Shown here: positions 1,983-10,988 of the stretch, one piece after another
Layout of the letters: the number at the start of each line of letters is the position of its first letter
Position numbering within the stretch: position 1 is the stretch's first letter
From: a virus
UHGV virus genome: UHGV-0304279
Direction: 5' to 3' (one strand)
Length of the DNA stretch: 53,351 bases
Program-made: the position numbers and the translations under genes
Notes under the pieces: generated by a model
What the model was told of the DNA's origin: nothing
The model's input: the letters and a program-made list of their open reading frames with translations, nothing else
Databases searched by the model: none

Positions 1983-4900
1983 ATGAGTAGCGGCGGCGGC
2001 AAAGCAAAAACACCGACTTTAATTAACGATAATCTATATCACAAACAGTTTTATCGTGTACTCGACATTATTTCAGAAGGTCCGATTTATGGTCCTGTTA
2101 ATACCAATGCGCCATTAAACAGCGTAATGCTTAATGACACTCCTGTAACTGACGCGAACGGTAATACCAGCATTCCAGGTGTTAGCGTTGCGTGGCGCAA
2201 TGGTACTGCCGACCAGTCACCGATCAACGGCTTTAATGCCATTGAATCCACGGTGATGGTTAACGCGCAGGTGAAACACGACACGCCACTGGTAAGGACG
2301 GTATCAGATCCGAACGTGACGCGAGTCCGGTTAAATATTGGTGTGGATTCACTGGTGGAAAGCGATAGCCAATCAAACCAGAAAGAAACATCTGTCATTA
2401 TGGCGATCGACGTTAAACCGTCCTCATCTTCCACATGGTCGTCTATCAAGGCCGTGCAAATAGGTCCAGGTAAAATCAGCGGAGAATACCTTGAAGCGCA
2501 TATTATCAATGCGCCAGATGAAAAGCCGTTTGATATTCGCGTTCGCCGTGTAACCGCTGATAGCACAAGCGATCTATTGCAGAATGATACGCGGTGGAAT
2601 AGCTACAGCGAAATAATCGACGATAATTTATCTTATCCTCACACCGCTGTAGCAGGCGCGGTTATTGACCACGATCAGTACACTGACACGCCTACCCGCA
2701 CCTATCACCTGCGTGGGCTTATTGTTGACGTGCCTGATAACTACGACCCGGAAACGCGCACTTATTCCGGTTTATGGCTTGGCGGGATGAAACAGGCGTA
2801 CACAAATAACCCTGCATGGATATTCCGCTACCTGGTTAAAAACGAGCGTTTCGGCCTTGCCCGTCATGCTGGCTACATTGACGTTGACGACGGCGCACTA
2901 TATACGCTATCCCAATACTGCGACCAGTTGGTCGATGATGGTTACGGTGGTCTTGAGCCGCGCGTTACGCTTAATGCTTACATTACGGAGCAAATGAGCG
3001 CACGCGACTTACTGGATAACATCGCCGGGATGTTCCGGGGGATCGCGTTATGGGACGGGCAACGCCTTACCGTGATGATTGATGCACCACAAGATCCAAT
3101 CGCCACCATTACGAATGCAAACGTTGTTGATGGCGCGTTTACTCGTTCAAGTATTTCCCGTGCGGAATGCTACAACGCCGTGATCGTATCCTGGACTGAC
3201 CCGGAAAACGGCTGGGAACAATCAAAAGAGTATGTAGCAGATGATGAATTAATCGCCCGTGACGGTTACAACGAAACCACGATGGAGGCGTTTGGCTGTA
3301 CGTCACGCGGGCAAGCGTACCGCGCTGGCAAATGGCTGATAGAAACAGCAAAACGCGAGCCGTCAAAATTCACATTTAAAATGGCCCGTGACGCGATTCA
3401 CTTTACGCCAGGGGATATTATCGAGATCCTCGACAATAACCGCGCAGGTGCGCGTTTAGGTGGTCGTATCGTGGCGAATAATGGGAACGTGATAACAGTT
3501 GATAAGGTTGACAGCGAGTACATCACGGCAGGCGACACTATCAGCCTGCTTGATAGCGATGGCAAATTTAAAAAACATCAGATCACTGGTATCAGCGGGA
3601 ACAAAATCACACTGGCTGCGGCCCCTGCATGGATTAGAAACGGTACTGTTTTTGCTGTATCAACCGAAGCAGCAAAACCCGTTTTATGCAGAATCACCAG
3701 TGTAGCCGAAACCGAAAATAATAGCGTGTATACCATCGAAGCCGCGCAACATGACCCTAACAAACAAGCAGTAGTCGATGAAGGCGCGATATTTGAAATC
3801 AACAACGACACGCTTAATCACTTCCGTGTACCGAATATTGAAAATCTGAAAGTGGTAAACATCGGATCTGAAACGGTTCAATGCCGCGCAACATGGGAAA
3901 CACAGACAACTACGCATCGCATGACATTCGAGATCCGCATATACAATACCGATGGTGCGGTGGTTAAAAGCTACGAAACAACGAAATACAGTTATGATTT
4001 TTACGGCATTGACGCTGGCGCGTATTCGTTAGGCGTTCGTGGAAGAAACGATACTGGCATGAAAGGTGCTGAAAGTATTGTCGATCTTGTTATTGGTGCT
4101 CCAGCCGCGCCAGTTGGCGTAAATTGGGTTCCCGGCGTATTCCAGGCGACCGTGTACCCGATAAGCAAAACCACGCTTACTACCGATACGTCATATGAAT
4201 TCTACTATGCTGGGGAAAACCAGATCACAGATCCTGCAATAATAACCACATCGGCACAGTTTACCGGGCGCGGGTATCAATGGACGTTCGGCGGCATGAA
4301 TACGGGCCATACTTATTACGTTTATGTGCGCACTCGCAATGCTTTTGGTGTGTCTGATTTCGTCGAGGCATCAGGTAAGCCGACAGAGGATTTTGACGAA
4401 ATTACTGATTACGTTACAAAGGATGTAATGGAGTCAGAGCAATTTAAGGAGATGATTAGCGACATTAAAGATCTTGGCGATCGCACTGACATTGTAGAAG
4501 GAGCTACCGAAGACCTTAAAATAGCTACAGAGGATCTTAAAGCTGACACAGATACACTTAAAAAAGACACCGAAGACCTTTATAAGAAAGTCGAAGAAAA
4601 CGCCGATGAAATAGGCAAACATGAGGTAAGAATAGACTCATTAGAGGTATCAAGCGAAAACGTTAATAACGAACTGGCACAGACAAAAGCAAGTTTACAA
4701 AACGCTTCGCTTGCTCTGATCAACAACTCGCTTGCTCAAACTAACACGCGGGTTACTCTTACCGCTCAATATAAGAAAGGTCGCAACGAAACAAAGGCAC
4801 AGATTGACCGCATTGACAACGTTATCGCAGAGGAGAAAAAAGCGACAGCGGAATCACTGGAAACCATCACAGCCGAAATAAGCACGATGGACTCAAACAT

Positions 4901-6035
4901 CAAAGGAGAGATAGCACGCGTAGACAAAGCAATAGCAACAGAAACGCAGGCAAGAAGCGACGCAATAACAGAAGTTAAAGCTGATCTTACAACGCTTGAA
5001 AGTAATACAAATGCCAGTGTTAGCCGTCTCGATCAGGCCATCGCTGATGAGTCAAGCGCCCGCGCCCAGGCAATATCAGGAATCAGTGCGGAGCTTGGTC
5101 TTGTTGAAAATGAGGTTGATAAAAACAGCGACGAAATAGATCAGGCGAAAGCAAGTCTACAAAACGCTTCACTTGCTCTGATCAACAACTCAATAGCGCA
5201 AAGCAAAATGAGCACTGTTATTGAGGCAAAATACAGGAAAGGCCAGACAAAAACAAAAGCGGAAATAGCAAGGATCGACACCGCAATAGCAGACGAAACC
5301 CAGGCCCGCGCGGAGGCTATAGCATCGCTTGAGGCAAATATTAATGAAAACATTTCAGCAAAAATAACAGATATATCAACGGCGCTTGCAACTCACGAGG
5401 AATCAAGTGCTGAAAAATTTGTTCAAATATCGGCATCTTTCGACGATGTAAACTCAAGCATCACGGAATGGTCACAGGCTATGGCAACGGCAGACGAGGC
5501 ATTATCAACCAAAATTGATCAGCTAACAGTTACCGTTAACGGGAACACAACAGCTATCGAGACGACATCGAAAGCATTAACTGATTTCAAAGGTGACGTT
5601 AACGCATCATATTCAATCAAGATTGCCACTGATAACAACGGCATGAAATATGCCACTGGCATGTCGCTTGGCCTGACTGGTAGCGGGACTAACGTTCAAT
5701 CGCAGTGCATTTTCCTCGTTGACCGCTTCGTGTTAATGACCGCCGCAAACGGCACATATACAACGCCTTTCTATGTCACTGGCGGCGCAATGTATGTACG
5801 TGAAGCGTTTATTAAGGACGCATCAATCACTAACGCGAAAATAGGTTCTTACATCCAATCAAATAACTATGTTTCCGGCAGCACAGGCTGGAAACTTGAT
5901 AAATCCGGTACATTCGAAAACTACGGATCAGTAAGCGGTGAAGGGGCGATGAAGTGGACGAATACAACGATCTCTGTCAGAGATGGAAATAGCGTGTTAC
6001 GCGTCCAGATTGGGCGAATTACCGGATCATGGTAG
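1983..6035 (+). CDS. tail tip / host specificity protein J (central tail fibre), with long C-terminal coiled-coil extension
   Basis: N-terminal two thirds resemble lambda gpJ throughout (N-terminus, NPAW, YCDQ.V.DG.GG.EPR.T.NAY, FGCTSRGQA.RAG.WL motifs); 1350 aa; C-terminal part is heptad-rich with an internal duplication. Confidence 0.9.
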   Translation: MSSGGGKAKTPTLINDNLYHKQFYRVLDIISEGPIYGPVNTNAPLNSVMLNDTPVTDANGNTSIPGVSVAWRNGTADQSPINGFNAIESTVMVNAQVKHDTPLVRTVSDPNVTRVRLNIGVDSLVESDSQSNQKETSVIMAIDVKPSSSSTWSSIKAVQIGPGKISGEYLEAHIINAPDEKPFDIRVRRVTADSTSDLLQNDTRWNSYSEIIDDNLSYPHTAVAGAVIDHDQYTDTPTRTYHLRGLIVDVPDNYDPETRTYSGLWLGGMKQAYTNNPAWIFRYLVKNERFGLARHAGYIDVDDGALYTLSQYCDQLVDDGYGGLEPRVTLNAYITEQMSARDLLDNIAGMFRGIALWDGQRLTVMIDAPQDPIATITNANVVDGAFTRSSISRAECYNAVIVSWTDPENGWEQSKEYVADDELIARDGYNETTMEAFGCTSRGQAYRAGKWLIETAKREPSKFTFKMARDAIHFTPGDIIEILDNNRAGARLGGRIVANNGNVITVDKVDSEYITAGDTISLLDSDGKFKKHQITGISGNKITLAAAPAWIRNGTVFAVSTEAAKPVLCRITSVAETENNSVYTIEAAQHDPNKQAVVDEGAIFEINNDTLNHFRVPNIENLKVVNIGSETVQCRATWETQTTTHRMTFEIRIYNTDGAVVKSYETTKYSYDFYGIDAGAYSLGVRGRNDTGMKGAESIVDLVIGAPAAPVGVNWVPGVFQATVYPISKTTLTTDTSYEFYYAGENQITDPAIITTSAQFTGRGYQWTFGGMNTGHTYYVYVRTRNAFGVSDFVEASGKPTEDFDEITDYVTKDVMESEQFKEMISDIKDLGDRTDIVEGATEDLKIATEDLKADTDTLKKDTEDLYKKVEENADEIGKHEVRIDSLEVSSENVNNELAQTKASLQNASLALINNSLAQTNTRVTLTAQYKKGRNETKAQIDRIDNVIAEEKKATAESLETITAEISTMDSNIKGEIARVDKAIATETQARSDAITEVKADLTTLESNTNASVSRLDQAIADESSARAQAISGISAELGLVENEVDKNSDEIDQAKASLQNASLALINNSIAQSKMSTVIEAKYRKGQTKTKAEIARIDTAIADETQARAEAIASLEANINENISAKITDISTALATHEESSAEKFVQISASFDDVNSSITEWSQAMATADEALSTKIDQLTVTVNGNTTAIETTSKALTDFKGDVNASYSIKIATDNNGMKYATGMSLGLTGSGTNVQSQCIFLVDRFVLMTAANGTYTTPFYVTGGAMYVREAFIKDASITNAKIGSYIQSNNYVSGSTGWKLDKSGTFENYGSVSGEGAMKWTNTTISVRDGNSVLRVQIGRITGSW
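4686..5213 (+). repeat. internal direct duplication inside J coiled-coil region (copies about 4686-4729 and 5170-5213)
   Basis: Near-identical about 44 nt segments encoding KASLQNASLALINNS(L/I)AQ, each followed by a similar about 50 aa block. Confidence 0.7.
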
Positions 6036-6085
6036 AATTAAGGGGCCGACTTGTTCGGCCTCAGTTTTATTATGGAGGTGTAATA

Positions 6086-6397
6086 ATGGCTACTTTCGGC
6101 GTAGCGACCTGGGACGCCAATGGCAATCCTAATAACTACGGTATCAAACCTTCCGTCGTAGTTGGCTATATTTCCTTGTCTTCCGGGCAAGTATCCGGAA
6201 CATATTCTTTTACCGTTCCAACCGGGTGCAAATTATCTTATGGCGTGGCGCTTGATTATGGTACAACATCGTCAACGCGCAGAAAGATCAGCATTTCCGG
6301 CGGCACTGTTTCCATTTCCTCCGCAGGGGATACGGTAGGGGCTGATATATGGCCTGCGTCACAATGTGACCTGATTATTTTTACGGAGATTGCATAA
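6086..6397 (+). CDS. hypothetical protein, MATFG paralogue 1
   Basis: ATG at 6086 with RBS GGAGGT; shares the N-terminal MATFG..(L/W)..NGN motif with the next gene. Confidence 0.5.
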   Translation: MATFGVATWDANGNPNNYGIKPSVVVGYISLSSGQVSGTYSFTVPTGCKLSYGVALDYGTTSSTRRKISISGGTVSISSAGDTVGADIWPASQCDLIIFTEIA

Positions 6398-6996
6398 TGG
6401 CTACTTTTGGCGCTTATTTACGCCTAGATAATGGCAATATTTTTGTAACGCCGGATTCTACCCCGATGTGCTTATATTCGCGGGTGGCATTAAATTCCAG
6501 CCAACAACAAACGATCGCTGTACCCAACGGTAAGCCTGTAATGGTATTCATCAAAAACACCGACGACACCGCTACTGGGCTTGCCTATCGCGCATCATCA
6601 TCTACGGTAGTGATCCCGCCTGGCAACGGGTATGCGTATATATTCAGCATCTTCCCGCCATCGCTGCCGAAATGGGGGATGGCTATCTGGAACGCTTCCG
6701 GGGAACTGGTACTGACCAACGAATCAAAAATATTAACCGACCTTGTTACAGTAGGCACGGCGGGATCGAGCGGGGGGATTTATATCGATCAAACATTATC
6801 AGGATCTTATGCGGTAGTGCCTCAGATATTGGGGGCCGCTGTAGGTATGGGTTCCGCAACAATATATACAGAATCATACTACAACGGCAGCAATACACGA
6901 ATTCGCGGGAAGATGGTTGGTAGCTTGCAACAGATTTACGGTTACATTAATCACGGGAACGCTATCACCGCCATTAAAACCGACGCCTATGATTAA
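6397..6996 (+). CDS. hypothetical protein, MATFG paralogue 2
   Basis: Start overlaps the stop of the previous gene (TAATG); N-terminal paralogy; glycine/serine-rich. Confidence 0.5.
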   Translation: MATFGAYLRLDNGNIFVTPDSTPMCLYSRVALNSSQQQTIAVPNGKPVMVFIKNTDDTATGLAYRASSSTVVIPPGNGYAYIFSIFPPSLPKWGMAIWNASGELVLTNESKILTDLVTVGTAGSSGGIYIDQTLSGSYAVVPQILGAAVGMGSATIYTESYYNGSNTRIRGKMVGSLQQIYGYINHGNAITAIKTDAYD

Positions 6997-7232
6997 TTCA
7001 GTTCCGGGCAATCCGTTTTCTTGAAGTGGTCAACGCTTACCCATTGGAAGTTAAACGGATACCCGGCCTTAACCATTTTATGACCGCCAACATCCGCGAC
7101 ACCGAAGACTGCAACCGCATATTCATTACCTCCAGCCTGATAAGTTGCCGTGCATTCACGTTTCGGCATATCAGCGCAACCAACCATACCAGCGACCATT
7201 GCAGCTATAGCGATATTTTTAAAGCCTTTCAT
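6993..7232 (-). CDS. small lipoprotein (moron), candidate superinfection-exclusion factor
   Basis: Minus-strand ORF inside the tail operon; signal peptide with lipobox-like VGC (MKGFKNIAIAAMVAGMVGCAD); RBS GGAGG upstream. Confidence 0.5.
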   Translation of the reverse strand: MKGFKNIAIAAMVAGMVGCADMPKRECTATYQAGGNEYAVAVFGVADVGGHKMVKAGYPFNFQWVSVDHFKKTDCPELN

Positions 7233-7307
7233 TGTCTTATCCTCCATTGTTCCGTCGGTTGTAGTATCCATAAACATCGTTTTCTCAACATTGATATAAA
7301 TCAATAA

Positions 7308-7362
7308 ATACATTTTGTATAAGCCAGAAATGTAACGCAGATCACAAAATGGTAAAATTACC
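7308..7362 (+). promoter_or_regulatory. restart promoter-like region upstream of the tail fibre gene
   Basis: Contains ATACATTTTGTATA and GATCACAAAATGG motif copies plus extended -10-like TGgTAAAAT at 7350-7358. Confidence 0.4.
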
Positions 7363-7391
7363 AGGTTAATTAACATAATGGAGTCATTGCG

Positions 7392-9170
7392 ATGATTTAC
7401 ACAACAGGCACGATAGCCGTTAGCGGAAACACAGTTACCGGAAAGGGGACTGAATTCAACGCCGCATTATCTCTGATCAGAGTTGGTTGCACTCTTATTG
7501 CCATTAGCGATCCGGTGCAAATTTTTTCAATCACAGAGGTAAAAAGCGCAACAAGTTTGTCGGTAACTCCGGCGGCAAGCCCGTCTATTCCGGCTGGGAC
7601 TAAATTTAGCATCCTGCTTTCAGATTCGATCTCTGTGGATGGTCTTGCTCAGGATGTCGCCGAAACACTACGTTACTATCAGGGCAAGGAATCAGAAATA
7701 GCTGACGCCGTAGAATTTTTTAGCGACAACAAGGATGTAATTTCAGCCTCAAAATTAGCGTCAGAATCGGCTACCACTGCAACTAACGCAGCAACAACAG
7801 CGACAACCGCCGCCAATTCAGCAAAGACATACAGAGACGAGGCCCACGAATACGCCAATCAGACGGCGCAGCCTTACGCGTATGTTTTGCAGCCGCTGCC
7901 GGACGTATGGATACCGTTTAATGATTCACTTGATATGCTCACTGGCTACGGCCCTGGCACTAAAAAAGTAACCATTGATGGTGAAGAAAAAACAATATCA
8001 TCAGATAAGGTTGTTTCTTTCTCACGCGCAAGCACTGCGACCTATATCAATAAATCCGGTGTACTCACCACTGCTGATATTGACGAGCCACGTTTCGAAC
8101 GCGAAGGATTATTAATCGAAGGTACGCGCACGAATTACCTGCGCAATTCTAACAATCCAGCATCGTGGCCTATTCATAGCCAATTAACTAAAGAAACGGG
8201 CGCAGACGAAAACGGGTTTAACTATGCGACAGTAACAGTAAGCGACGATCTTGTAGGGACGACAGGCGGTTACACTGTGCATGGCGTAGTTACAGCTGAT
8301 AGATTTGCATTAGCCGCTGGCGAGAGCCTCACACTTTCCGCTCTTTGCCGTGGTACTAATGCACGCTGCCGGGCGCGTATATCAATTATTGTTGATGGAA
8401 CTGATACATTTTCTGCTGACTCTTATTTAAATTTAAATACAGGTGAAGCGTTAGTGTCTGGTGATACTACGCTAATCACTACGAAATCAGAGCAACGTGG
8501 CGATTGGTATTACTTTGAAACAACATACACAGCAAAGGTTGATATAGATGCTGTTAATTGTTCTTTTTATATATCTAACCTGGTAAATGATAGCTTTTAT
8601 TCCGATTCTTCTATGGCATTAGCAACTCCGCAAATCGAGTTAGGTTCTTGCGCATCATCGTTTATTGTATCAGGTGACACTCCAACCACACGAGCAAGCG
8701 ACATGGTAAGCATACCTACTAAGAATAACCTGTTTAAGCCACCATTCAGTTTTTTACTTGAATTACACAAGGAATGGACAACAGCACCAAACGCAGCGCC
8801 TAGAGTATTTGACATTGCAAACGCAAACACAGGGCAAAGTGTTATAGCTGCTATTAACAGAGGTAGCAGTAAATTTTACGTTTCCTTGTCTAACAGTTCT
8901 GGTACTTACATCAATTCTGCCGCTGATTCCGTATTGCCAAGTAAAGCCATTGTTGGTGCGGTAGTTAAAGGTGATGATACTTTTCACGCGATCATGGATG
9001 GTGTGGCGGTTGCAGATACAACATGTTCCTACGGTGGAGTAACTCAAGACAAAAACATCAGATTCGGCGGCCAGGTAGCAGACGGAGCGCGTCACTTGTT
9101 CGGACATATAAGAAATTTTCGTATCTGGCACAAAGCATTAACTGATTCTCAATTAAGCGAAATTGTTTAA
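7392..9170 (+). CDS. side tail fibre protein with C-terminal lectin-like (LamG/ConA-like) domain
   Basis: 592 aa; Ala/Thr-rich fibre-like segment (SESATTATNAATTATTAANSAKTY); C-terminal domain resembles a concanavalin-like lectin fold. Confidence 0.7.
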   Translation: MIYTTGTIAVSGNTVTGKGTEFNAALSLIRVGCTLIAISDPVQIFSITEVKSATSLSVTPAASPSIPAGTKFSILLSDSISVDGLAQDVAETLRYYQGKESEIADAVEFFSDNKDVISASKLASESATTATNAATTATTAANSAKTYRDEAHEYANQTAQPYAYVLQPLPDVWIPFNDSLDMLTGYGPGTKKVTIDGEEKTISSDKVVSFSRASTATYINKSGVLTTADIDEPRFEREGLLIEGTRTNYLRNSNNPASWPIHSQLTKETGADENGFNYATVTVSDDLVGTTGGYTVHGVVTADRFALAAGESLTLSALCRGTNARCRARISIIVDGTDTFSADSYLNLNTGEALVSGDTTLITTKSEQRGDWYYFETTYTAKVDIDAVNCSFYISNLVNDSFYSDSSMALATPQIELGSCASSFIVSGDTPTTRASDMVSIPTKNNLFKPPFSFLLELHKEWTTAPNAAPRVFDIANANTGQSVIAAINRGSSKFYVSLSNSSGTYINSAADSVLPSKAIVGAVVKGDDTFHAIMDGVAVADTTCSYGGVTQDKNIRFGGQVADGARHLFGHIRNFRIWHKALTDSQLSEIV

Positions 9171-9180
9171 GGTGGTTAGC

Positions 9181-9447
9181 ATGAAAGACGTTAGCTTGCA
9201 ATTTACTGATAAACAGCAATACAACGACATTGTGATTAACAGCGGCTGGCTGGACGAAAATCAGCAAACCGTGTTTATTGATGATATTGGTTTTGTTCTT
9301 GTATTCGATGATCCAGAAAGCGAGACGCCTGTACTGATTGAGAAAAAAGGCTATTACGTCAACATGCGCATTACTGGTGACGATATTGATTTGTCGCCGC
9401 TGGAAAAATTCACCATTCCAGATCCCGGCGTCCGCGCATGGGCTTGA
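9181..9447 (+). CDS. hypothetical protein (possible fibre-associated)
   Basis: ORF coupled to the tail fibre gene; start and function uncertain. Confidence 0.35.
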   Translation: MKDVSLQFTDKQQYNDIVINSGWLDENQQTVFIDDIGFVLVFDDPESETPVLIEKKGYYVNMRITGDDIDLSPLEKFTIPDPGVRAWA

Positions 9448-9490
9448 TGGTGCAATAGTAACAGCATGGTGATGTTAAAGACATCGCCGC

Positions 9491-9520
9491 GAAACGAGGC
9501 TAACGCCTCGTTTCTTTTTG
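9491..9520 (+). terminator. rho-independent terminator ending the tail operon
   Basis: Hairpin GAAACGAGGC-taac-GCCTCGTTTC followed by TTTTTG. Confidence 0.7.
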
Positions 9521-9781
9521 TGTACCAAATAGTGACCAAATATCAAAAACCAAAATCAAAAACAACATAACATTCTGTTTTATAAATGATTATTCGTTAC
9601 GCTAACCATTCCAGACAGGACCAGTGCGCTCTGTTTAAAGGTGTTTAACTCCGTTCAATCACGTCAATAAAATCACTTAAAAATCATACAGTTGCAACCA
9701 AAACCAGGCATCACGTTTCTAATTCAGTACAATACTGTTAATATCCGTACAACAAAAACTGTGTACCAAAACGTGACCAAA
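9519..9781 (+). other. putative attP region flanked by direct repeats (candidate integrase arm-type sites)
   Basis: TGTGTACCAAATAGTGACCAAA at 9519-9540 and TGTGTACCAAAACGTGACCAAA at 9760-9781 bracket an AT-rich stretch immediately upstream of int. Confidence 0.4.
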
Positions 9782-9797
9782 AATGGGGGGGTGCAAC

Positions 9798-10988
9798 ATG
9801 CTTACGGACACCAGGTTAAGGACCATCGCCAACAAGCCATACGACGGCCCAGGCGAGATAGCTGATCGTGATGGCCTGTCAGCCAGGATAAGCCCAAAAG
9901 GGAAAATTACTTTCCAGTACCGTTACAGATTCAACGGTAAGCCAGTGCGAATGAAGATCGGCGAGTACGGGAAAATGAGTCTGAAAGACGCCCGCTACGC
10001 GGTGGCTGAATACAGGGAGTTGCTTACGAAAGGGAAGAATCCGGCACTGTGCGTAAAGCAGGCCATAGCCTTTGAGCAGGGCAAGCGATCTATATCCGAC
10101 GTAGTGGAAGACTATCTATCCCTGCCGAACGTCATTAAGCTGGTGGCATATAAAGAAGTCAAAAGCGCATTGATGCGCCACGTAGTCAACAAGTACGGCG
10201 ACTACATAGCTGACGACGTAACGACAAAACAGTGGATGGATATATTTGGCGAGATCACGAAGGCGGGGCACGCCGTTACGGCAGGTTTGATATTGAAGCG
10301 AATGAAAATCATCGTTAACAGCGCAATCAGGCGCGGGATAATGACTAACACAGCGATAAACAATATCCGTGTAGCTGACGTTGGCGAGCATTATGCTGTG
10401 GGTGAACGTTACCTATCATGCGAGGAAATAGGCCACTTCTGGCGTACTGTAGACAGTTCGCAGATCTATCCGCAGAACAAAATAGCCTTAAAGCTATTGT
10501 TGCTCACCGGGTGCAGGGTGGGAGAATTACAGAAAATGAGAAGGGAACACCTGGACCTGGACAACGGTGTGTGGACCGTTCCGGCGGCGGTGGCGAAGAC
10601 AAGAAGTGAAATCAGGCGGGGATTATCTGACTTGTCGATAAAAATGCTCAGGGAGGTGTTAGCCTCCCATGAGTATGATTATGTGTTCCCGCCAGTGATT
10701 AACGGCGGCAACAGGCCAGTAAACGCATCGGTGATAAAGGTTGCTGCAATCTTCGTGCGTAAAAGGATGGGCGGTAAATCATGGTCCTGTCACGACCTCC
10801 GCAGGACGTGCCGGACACACCTTTCGGCTATAGGTGTCCCAGTACATATTGCAGAAAAGATCTTAGGCCATTCATTAAGGGGAATACTGGCGGTGTACGA
10901 CAAATACGATTATCTTGACGAACAAAAGGAGGCACTAAATAAGTTTGCTGATTATGTATTATCTTTAGCTGACGTTAAACCAATCTGA
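9798..10988 (+). CDS. int: tyrosine integrase (P4-like)
   Basis: Catalytic motifs TGCRVGEL (Arg), HDLRRT (His-x-x-Arg), LGHS (His), AVYDKY (Tyr); N-terminal arm-binding-like domain; RBS GGGGG before ATG 9798. Confidence 0.9.
   Translation: MLTDTRLRTIANKPYDGPGEIADRDGLSARISPKGKITFQYRYRFNGKPVRMKIGEYGKMSLKDARYAVAEYRELLTKGKNPALCVKQAIAFEQGKRSISDVVEDYLSLPNVIKLVAYKEVKSALMRHVVNKYGDYIADDVTTKQWMDIFGEITKAGHAVTAGLILKRMKIIVNSAIRRGIMTNTAINNIRVADVGEHYAVGERYLSCEEIGHFWRTVDSSQIYPQNKIALKLLLLTGCRVGELQKMRREHLDLDNGVWTVPAAVAKTRSEIRRGLSDLSIKMLREVLASHEYDYVFPPVINGGNRPVNASVIKVAAIFVRKRMGGKSWSCHDLRRTCRTHLSAIGVPVHIAEKILGHSLRGILAVYDKYDYLDEQKEALNKFADYVLSLADVKPI

Follow-up and report, generated by a model that had tools for sequence, protein, structure and literature searches.

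The 53,351-nucleotide stretch of the UHGV virus genome UHGV-0304279, called the window here, carries a short minus-strand gene, cor, next to its tail genes. The gene belongs, as an unremarkable member, to the well-known Cor lipoproteins of phages, which shut off the outer-membrane receptor FhuA and so protect a cell that carries the phage from a second infection; E. coli genomes already have it annotated as such. We put the probability at about 0.87 that it encodes a Cor-family superinfection-exclusion lipoprotein; this figure covers the whole of the best explanation, including the blocking of the TonB-dependent transporter FhuA. In NCBI, an identical protein of 79 aa is already on record from 16 contigs of E. 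coli, and PGAP gives the name 'phage exclusion lipoprotein Cor' to variants that depart from it at one or two positions. The same gene, with 89–98% identical DNA, is annotated as cor by PGAP at the same position in the prophages of E. coli M15, Ecol_244, UMNK88 and MFDS1019527. The Cor proteins of these four mEpimmI-type prophages (WP_078235164.1 in Ecol_244) are 94–97% identical to that of the window. There are few substitutions between them, such as M16 in the window for L16 and T30 for I30. The four prophages also share with the window the 159-nt intergenic region and the order J – pA – pB – cor (antisense) – fibre, whereas the C-termini of the fibres and the integration sites differ. The features of the locus are collected in Table 1.

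Table 1. Features of the cor locus, in positions of the window.
Feature	Positions	Strand	Remarks
J, tail tip protein, 1350 aa	1983..6035	plus	Pfam Phage_Tail_Tip, FNIII-A_GpJ, Ig_J, Phage-tail_3; PHROG 31; directly upstream of the cassette
pA, 103 aa	6086..6397	plus	PHROG 557 'outer membrane protein', E = 6.5e-28
pB, 199 aa	6397..6996	plus	PHROG 425 'membrane associated protein', E = 6.4e-49; gene directly before cor
cor, predicted Cor-family superinfection-exclusion lipoprotein precursor	6993..7232	minus	79 codons; stop codon 6993-6995
Lipidated Cys19 codon (predicted)	7176-7178	minus	lipobox M16-V17-G18-C19
Signal peptide, residues 1-18 (predicted)	7179..7232	minus	PS51257 rule
Intergenic region, cor to fibre gene	7233..7391		159 nt; AT-rich
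Shine-Dalgarno GGAGGA	7240..7245	minus	7 nt upstream of ATG 7232; read from sequence
Side tail fibre, 592 aa	7392..9170	plus	PHROG 1419, E = 1e-166; NCBIfam GTA_spike_fiber domain; Laminin_G_3

Extent of the gene and its lipoprotein signal

The translation of cor (6993–7232, minus strand) has 79 residues followed by a stop codon and reads MKGFKNIAIAAMVAGMVGCADMPKRECTATYQAGGNEYAVAVFGVADVGGHKMVKAGYPFNFQWVSVDHFKKTDCPELN. The mechanical list of open reading frames gave a longer frame of 127 aa for the gene, starting from an ATG at 7376. This start was rejected; one relative carries an in-frame stop in the extension, and the extension is without a family match. It is also disfavoured by the internal ATG at 7232, which is preceded by a strong and conserved Shine-Dalgarno sequence. 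In the alignment of cor alleles, GGAGG is kept in all six and the start codon is conserved as well. In the related prophages, PGAP calls a 79-aa cor product. The spacing of the Shine-Dalgarno sequence, the in-frame stop of the relative and the 79-aa calls of PGAP place the true start at 7232.

The product satisfies the PROSITE lipoprotein rule PS51257, with lysines at positions 2 and 5, a hydrophobic core, the lipobox MVGC, Cys19 and an alanine at +2. The same rule is passed by 69 of the 71 Cor family members. The −3 position of the lipobox, usually Leu, is Met in the window protein; PS51257 permits Met, and six of the 69 rule-passing members have it. The preliminary description had proposed a 79-aa minus-strand frame with a signal peptide and a lipobox-like VGC, lying between the tail-tip genes and the tail fibre gene and antisense to both. 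Translation and the neighbouring genes confirm the frame, its start and its location, and the lipoprotein signal is present on prediction.

Cleavage before Cys19 would leave a mature protein of 61 residues, lipidated at Cys1 and with Ala at +2. Among the 69 rule-passing members, the +2 residue is A in 40, S in 26 and T, V and G in one each; Asp occurs in none of them, and the window product is likewise without the Asp 'Lol-avoidance' signal at this position. By the Lol sorting rule, a lipoprotein without Asp at +2 goes to the outer membrane. The rule would place Cor in the periplasmic leaflet of that membrane.

Family membership, selection and predicted fold

Two curated models recognize the protein. 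The NCBIfam equivalog NF047972, 'phage exclusion lipoprotein Cor', matched with 55.8 bits (cut-off 31) over model positions 8–76 of 78. PHROG 1119, 'Cor superinfection exclusion protein', matched with E = 4.9e-23 over positions 4–75 of 78. A Pfam search of the product gave zero matches; the family is modelled in NCBIfam and PHROGs only. By tblastn, cor homologues were found in 226 phage records, most of which bear the name Cor or super-infection exclusion protein. A profile search of a large protein collection returned 355 clusters, widely named Cor, from across Enterobacterales. The profile for this search was built from eight Cor proteins, and a single-sequence search had given only six near-identical clusters, owing to the word index.

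The window protein is nearest to the Cor of lytic Drexlerviridae and Dhillonvirus (60–65% identity), followed by that of T1 (45–47%) and those of N15 and HK75 (35–38%). The Cor proteins that have been studied, namely those of phi80, N15, HK022, mEp167 and T1, resemble it in size (72–80 aa), signal peptide, cysteine pair and AGYPF motif. They also resemble it in their position after J – pA – pB and in their tie to FhuA-dependent phages. However, they share only 35–47% identity with it (36% for N15) and differ from it at lipobox −3. In an alignment of 71 sequences, C19, C27, G57, Y58, P59 and C75 are invariant, and G18, A56 and F60 are at least 90% conserved; in the other family alignment (A1), both G18 and C19 are invariant. 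The window Cor carries all invariant residues and the AGYPF motif.

Selection was measured on alleles taken from the window, from four E. coli prophages and from two metagenome or run assemblies. All 15 pairwise comparisons of the six cor alleles gave dN/dS between 0.02 and 0.26, which indicates purifying selection. Dozens of chance frames of at least 40 aa occur on both strands of the window, and together with the lack of a Pfam match this might suggest that cor is also a chance or decayed frame without function. We regard that reading as effectively refuted by the NF047972 and PHROG 1119 matches and by dN/dS values well below 1. The conserved Shine-Dalgarno sequence and start codon, the intact lipobox and the full set of invariant residues argue in the same direction. 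Thus, cor is a real gene and not a chance frame.

An AlphaFold2 model built with the 71 family members has five β-strands, with pLDDT values of 81–91 over the mature domain. When this model was compared with the PDB by Foldseek, the lipoprotein Llp of phage T5 in its complex with FhuA (8a60_B) ranked second (E = 0.046, target-normalised TM 0.57). The two superpose with an rmsd of 2.8 Å over 51 columns at 25% identity; Tudor/chromo-like small barrels score similarly, so that in this PDB search Llp was not statistically separable from generic barrels of that kind. The Cor sequence profile also gave 8a60_B as its top match in the PDB, with E = 0.032, mostly over the signal peptide and the first strand. 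In BFVD, the best match was a Dhillonvirus Cor (E = 1.5e-8), and matches 2–6 were lipoproteins of T5-like phages (E = 3e-3 to 2e-2), one of which is named 'receptor-blocking protein'. Among solved structures of comparable size, the predicted fold of Cor appears closest to FhuA-bound T5 Llp, with links of fold and of sequence that are individually marginal. A shared fold, or a single superfamily, has been proposed for Cor and Llp (bioRxiv 10.64898/2026.03.26.714494; the fold also in PMC13164509), and the marginal links are consistent with the proposed fold.

Other properties of the two proteins can be compared directly. The target of Llp is FhuA, and the crystal structure of the Llp–FhuA complex has been solved (PMC9586334). 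Mature Llp (PDB 8A60, chain B) has 61 residues, as has the predicted mature Cor of the window, and both are lipidated at Cys1, by prediction in the case of Cor. The Cys11–Cys58 pair of Llp and the cysteines of mature Cor (Cys9 and Cys57) both lie near the two ends of the chain. Both proteins are encoded beside receptor-recognition genes. The partner receptor-binding protein of T5 is pb5, which is unrelated to pA and pB of the window; a pb5-type gene was not found beside cor, where the neighbours are pA and pB (PHROG 557 and 425). T5 Llp also falls below the curated thresholds of the Cor family models.

The J – pA – pB – cor cassette and the predicted receptor

Two small genes, pA and pB, separate J from cor. 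For pA, the list of open reading frames gave a 122-aa frame from 6029. Its homologues are 100–103 aa long and align from residue 20 of that frame, and the start is most likely the ATG at 6086. The stop codons of pB and cor overlap convergently at 6993–6996. T1, N15, ES18, HK75 and the BASEL phages Bas03, Bas05 and Bas15 also have homologues of both pA and pB in the interval from J to cor. In all of these, and in the four E. coli prophages, cor directly follows two small genes after J. The order J – pA – pB – cor (antisense) – fibre, with attP and int next, matches that of Salmonella phage ES18 exactly; in the window, the integrase gene lies at 9783–10988. The orientation of cor varies among phages, being antisense in T1, ES18 and Dhillonvirus, and the same as that of the tail genes in N15 and HK75. 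By BLAST, window pA is 45–62% identical to its counterparts in Bas05, N15 and T1, and window pB is 61% identical to that of Bas05 (PeterMerian) and 45–46% identical to those of N15 and T1. When the locus was compared with phage genomes by megablast, the cassette was without a close relative, and only the N-terminal part of the fibre and the intergenic block beside it matched, in mEp021-like phages.

Loci downstream of gpJ have been described as 'bona fide RBP loci', each specific for a receptor and accompanied by cognate exclusion genes (PMC8594841). FhuA dependence has been established by experiment for Bas03, Bas05, Bas15 and Bas16 (S5 Table, PMC8594841). The full cassette is present in 10 BASEL phages, all of them FhuA users, and is also cited for T1, HK022, N15, ES18 and phi80 (PMC13164509). 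Because cor travels with the J – pA – pB cassette associated with FhuA phages, we predict that the terminal receptor of the window phage is FhuA. The prediction is drawn from pA and pB since distant Cor-like proteins also occur in phages that use BtuB (PMC13164509), and family resemblance by itself is insufficient.

We compared FhuA phages with phages of other receptors using the Cor profile and pA/pB. The FhuA phages scored 96–139 bits with the profile. Homologues of pA and pB were not detected in the whole genome of Bas02 (LptD), nor in the 16–18 kb around J in Bas14 (LptD) and Bas06 (BtuB). Among the loci examined, pA and pB are thus present only in those of FhuA phages, in agreement with the published surveys. 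The only Cor-like match in the three controls was an 89-aa lipoprotein of Bas06, and it was weak (26 bits).

This match from a BtuB-dependent phage could suggest that the window protein is a Cor-like lipoprotein that jams another TonB-dependent transporter or outer-membrane protein, such as BtuB, FepA or YncD. The reports of Cor-like proteins in BtuB users (PMC13164509) and the lipoproteins of the same fold in T5-like phages with other receptors would fit such a reading. We consider it very improbable. The window Cor scores 101 bits against 26 for the BtuB-type protein, although the value of 101 is inflated as the window protein is itself part of the profile. It is also 60–65% identical to the Cor of experimentally FhuA-dependent phages. 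Furthermore, pA and pB are 61–62% identical to those of the FhuA phage Bas05 and went undetected in the LptD and BtuB loci. FhuA thus stays the predicted receptor. The preliminary description had proposed an exclusion factor of the Cor or Llp type, from which the class of receptor might also be read. The curated models, the conserved residues and the gene context support such a lipoprotein, with an exclusion activity predicted by homology, and it is the accompanying pA/pB cassette that points to FhuA.

Proposed mode of action and the exchangeable slot

The mechanism we propose is derived from homology to the studied Cor proteins (phi80, N15, HK022, mEp167 and T1) and from the solved complex of T5 Llp with FhuA. 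The small β-rich domain of Cor is probably clamped by a Cys27–Cys75 disulfide, equivalent to Cys11–Cys58 of Llp. By analogy, Cor would bind FhuA at its periplasmic face and plug. FhuA would then be locked with its plug in a non-native conformation, and its extracellular loops would fold inward over the site for the phage receptor-binding protein. FhuA-dependent phages, including the phage's own progeny, could then neither adsorb irreversibly nor inject. Reduced ferrichrome uptake and a lower sensitivity to colicin M are predicted side effects. Protection of lysogens against FhuA-dependent phages and a lower ferrichrome uptake have been reported for the Cor of HK022, N15 and phi80 (PMC3594210). 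From the literature, exclusion of FhuA-dependent phages and inactivation of FhuA functions (ferrichrome uptake and colicin M sensitivity) are known for the Cor of mEp167 as well as for these three. For Cor, as distinct from Llp, the molecular mode of action is still called unsettled (bioRxiv 10.64898/2026.03.26.714494).

Because it lies on the strand opposite to the late tail genes, cor would need a promoter of its own. Such an arrangement would allow expression from the prophage, expression early in infection, or both. A standard scan of positions 6600–7700 found neither a consensus sigma-70 promoter nor a terminator. With relaxed settings, a weak 8/12 candidate was found on the minus strand (TTTACC-16-TACATT, 7356–7329), together with a weak extended −10 candidate on the plus strand (TGgTAAAAT, 7350–7358) that would serve the fibre gene. 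Inspection of the intergenic region by eye also turned up a Fur-box-like sequence and small palindromes, which were dropped as they are not conserved among the alleles.

The activity could be the same and its main role still be 'lytic conversion', in which Cor is expressed only in the lytic cycle and saves new virions from FhuA in cell debris. Such a role has been discussed for Cor (PMC13164509). In strictly lytic phages (T1, Drexlerviridae, Dhillonvirus and T5), cor or llp is likewise antisense, and the standard scan gave no clear constitutive promoter. We hold this to be possible but clearly the less probable account of the main role. The Cor proteins reported to protect lysogens belong to temperate phages (PMC3594210), and the window phage is itself temperate, as its integrase gene indicates. 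In addition, the antisense orientation uncouples cor from the late operon. A role in lysis and one in the prophage can coexist. More remotely, this cor allele, together with pA and pB, may have a target or a role beyond the blocking of FhuA.

For the proposed FhuA-blocking Cor, the practical value lies in prediction. The gene would be a cheap and fairly reliable predictor of the terminal receptor of its phage. It also predicts resistance of the lysogen to T1, T5, phi80 and many Drexlerviridae and Dhillonvirus, which is of use in host-range prediction and in the design of phage cocktails. Otherwise, the gene is one more copy of a well-described and automatically annotated family, in an arrangement that is precedented in detail.

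Over its 25-kb late region, the window shows 84–87% identity to Escherichia phage MagusPhagus and to mEp010, mEp044, mEp554, mEp021, mEp515 and mEp013; the window phage is one of the temperate mEp021-like (mEpimmI) coliphages. The closest prophages are those of Ecol_244 and UMNK88, and both have been assigned to the mEpimmI group (PMC11893012). Four types of lipoprotein have been described in the structural gene cluster of this group, two of which were tested, and the receptors tested were OmpA, LamB and OmpC only; Cor is mentioned in that paper only in its reference list (PMC11893012). Placing a FhuA-type cassette in the mEpimmI group, in which receptor diversity is partly mapped, is the sole modest addition made here. 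We think it improbable that no FhuA-type receptor/exclusion cassette had been recognised before in mEp021-like temperate coliphages. Under the same reading, if cor were expressed from the prophage, gut E. coli carrying this phage would also be altered in ferrichrome uptake and in sensitivity to colicin M, albomycin and phages.

Other small antisense lipoprotein genes are found in the same slot after J. Those of the Rtp45 type (Rtp, Bas01, Bas02, Bas14 and gp81 of mEp021) are likewise paired with a receptor-binding gene, and this type of lipoprotein blocks the outer-membrane receptor that its own phage uses (PMC12685063). In contrast to the predicted target of the window Cor, the target of the Rtp45 type is LptDE and not a TonB-dependent transporter, and its partner is a receptor-binding protein of 311 aa encoded on the same antisense strand. 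The list of open reading frames and the PHROG search revealed no homologue of this 311-aa Rtp44-type protein in the slot of the window. The mature sequences of the Rtp45-type proteins and the window Cor are unrelated; the match between them covers 32 residues of the signal peptide only.

In mEp021 and MagusPhagus, the slot holds antisense lipoprotein genes that differ from cor. The approximately 100 nt beside the fibre gene (about 7290–7391) are common to mEpimmI phages with other lipoprotein cassettes. Because the lipoprotein genes differ while this fibre-side segment is shared, the slot is, as judged from the alignments, a receptor/exclusion module exchangeable by recombination, of which the window has the FhuA/Cor version. 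In these alignments, divergence from mEp021 and MagusPhagus begins at approximately 7285–7290, and the E. coli matches are limited to positions 298–399 of the query.

Reading frames and lipobox of the cor cassette

Two plus-strand genes, pA and pB, lie between the tail tip gene J and the antisense exclusion lipoprotein gene cor. The first is listed as a 122-aa ORF (window 6029-6397). Since the pA homologues are all 100-103 aa long and their alignment begins at residue 20 of this ORF, the true start is most likely the internal ATG at 6086, which gives a product of 103 aa. The pA of the E. coli prophage Ecol_244 is also called as 103 aa by PGAP.

The pB and cor genes converge, and their stop codons overlap at 6993-6996 (pB TAA at 6994-6996, plus strand; cor TAA at 6993-6995, minus strand), so a terminator would not fit between the two genes. 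By annotated coordinates, the identical 4-nt overlap is present in all four related loci examined: the prophages Ecol_244, MFDS1019527 and UMNK88, and the assembly locus ERR4221016. In T1-like phages, by contrast, the equivalents of pB and cor are approximately 20-30 nt apart.

The residue at lipobox position -3 is Met in the window allele of cor (MVGC) and Leu in its nearest relatives (LVGC). The lipoprotein pattern used in the mEpimmI paper (PMC11893012) is the strict [LVI][ASTVI][GAS]C, which this allele would escape because of the Met. It passes the broader PS51257 rule.

Features in and around the cassette
Feature	Position	Strand	Remark
cor codon 16	7185-7187	minus	Met at lipobox -3
Extended -10, TGgTAAAAT	7350-7358	plus	candidate promoter
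94-aa ORF	9163-9447		between fibre and integrase genes
Tyrosine integrase gene	9783-10988		domains Arm-DNA-bind_3 and Phage_integrase
gp80 and gp81 slot	L016 (mEp021 locus) 2802-3955 = MH706966.1 51741-52894	antisense	compared with L012 19730-20895 and L013 6410-7575 (loci of Bas02 and Bas14)
89-aa lipoprotein downstream of J	L014 (locus of BASEL phage Bas06 KarlJaspers, BtuB-dependent) 6546-6815		weak Cor-profile match

Exchange points towards the side tail fibre

The intergenic region between cor and the side tail fibre gene (7233-7391) measures 159 nt in all five relatives with this cor allele whose sequence was to hand. Its fibre-proximal ~100 nt are also kept in mEpimmI phages with unrelated lipoprotein cassettes, as well as in 22 E. 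coli genomes without this cor allele. This sharing marks the junction near 7285-7290 as a module-exchange boundary. The extended -10 in this region could serve the fibre gene as a dedicated promoter.

Within the fibre gene itself (7392-9170), only the first ~130 codons, together with the upstream leader, are common to mEp021-like phages. The remainder is 70% identical to the fibre of Ecol_244, and the C-terminal end is a Laminin_G_3/'head spike fibre' domain. This pattern indicates that host-range determinants are also exchanged at a second point, independent of the first. The fibre gene is followed by the 94-aa ORF and then by the integrase gene, an order that probably places attP at about 9450-9780. 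The window as a whole has the look of a temperate phage genome of the mEp021-like group, complete and circularly permuted.

Lipoproteins downstream of J in other phages

In mEp021, from the phage group of the window, the slot equivalent to that of cor contains gp80 in antisense orientation (311 aa) together with a 72-aa lipoprotein, gp81. Over its full length, gp80 is 61-62% identical to the proteins, likewise of 311 aa, that are encoded downstream of J in Bas02 and Bas14, two LptD-dependent BASEL phages. The Rtp45-type exclusion lipoproteins of these two phages share 49-52% identity with gp81. OmpA has been described as a partial receptor for mEp021 (PMC11893012). The homology of gp80 and gp81 instead predicts LptD/LptE as the terminal receptor.

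The Bas06 lipoprotein matches the Cor profile weakly (26 bits), and no pA or pB homologues were found beside it in the Bas06 locus. This match in a BtuB-dependent phage suggests a broader Cor/Llp-like superfamily targeting different TonB-dependent transporters, as PMC13164509 likewise notes.
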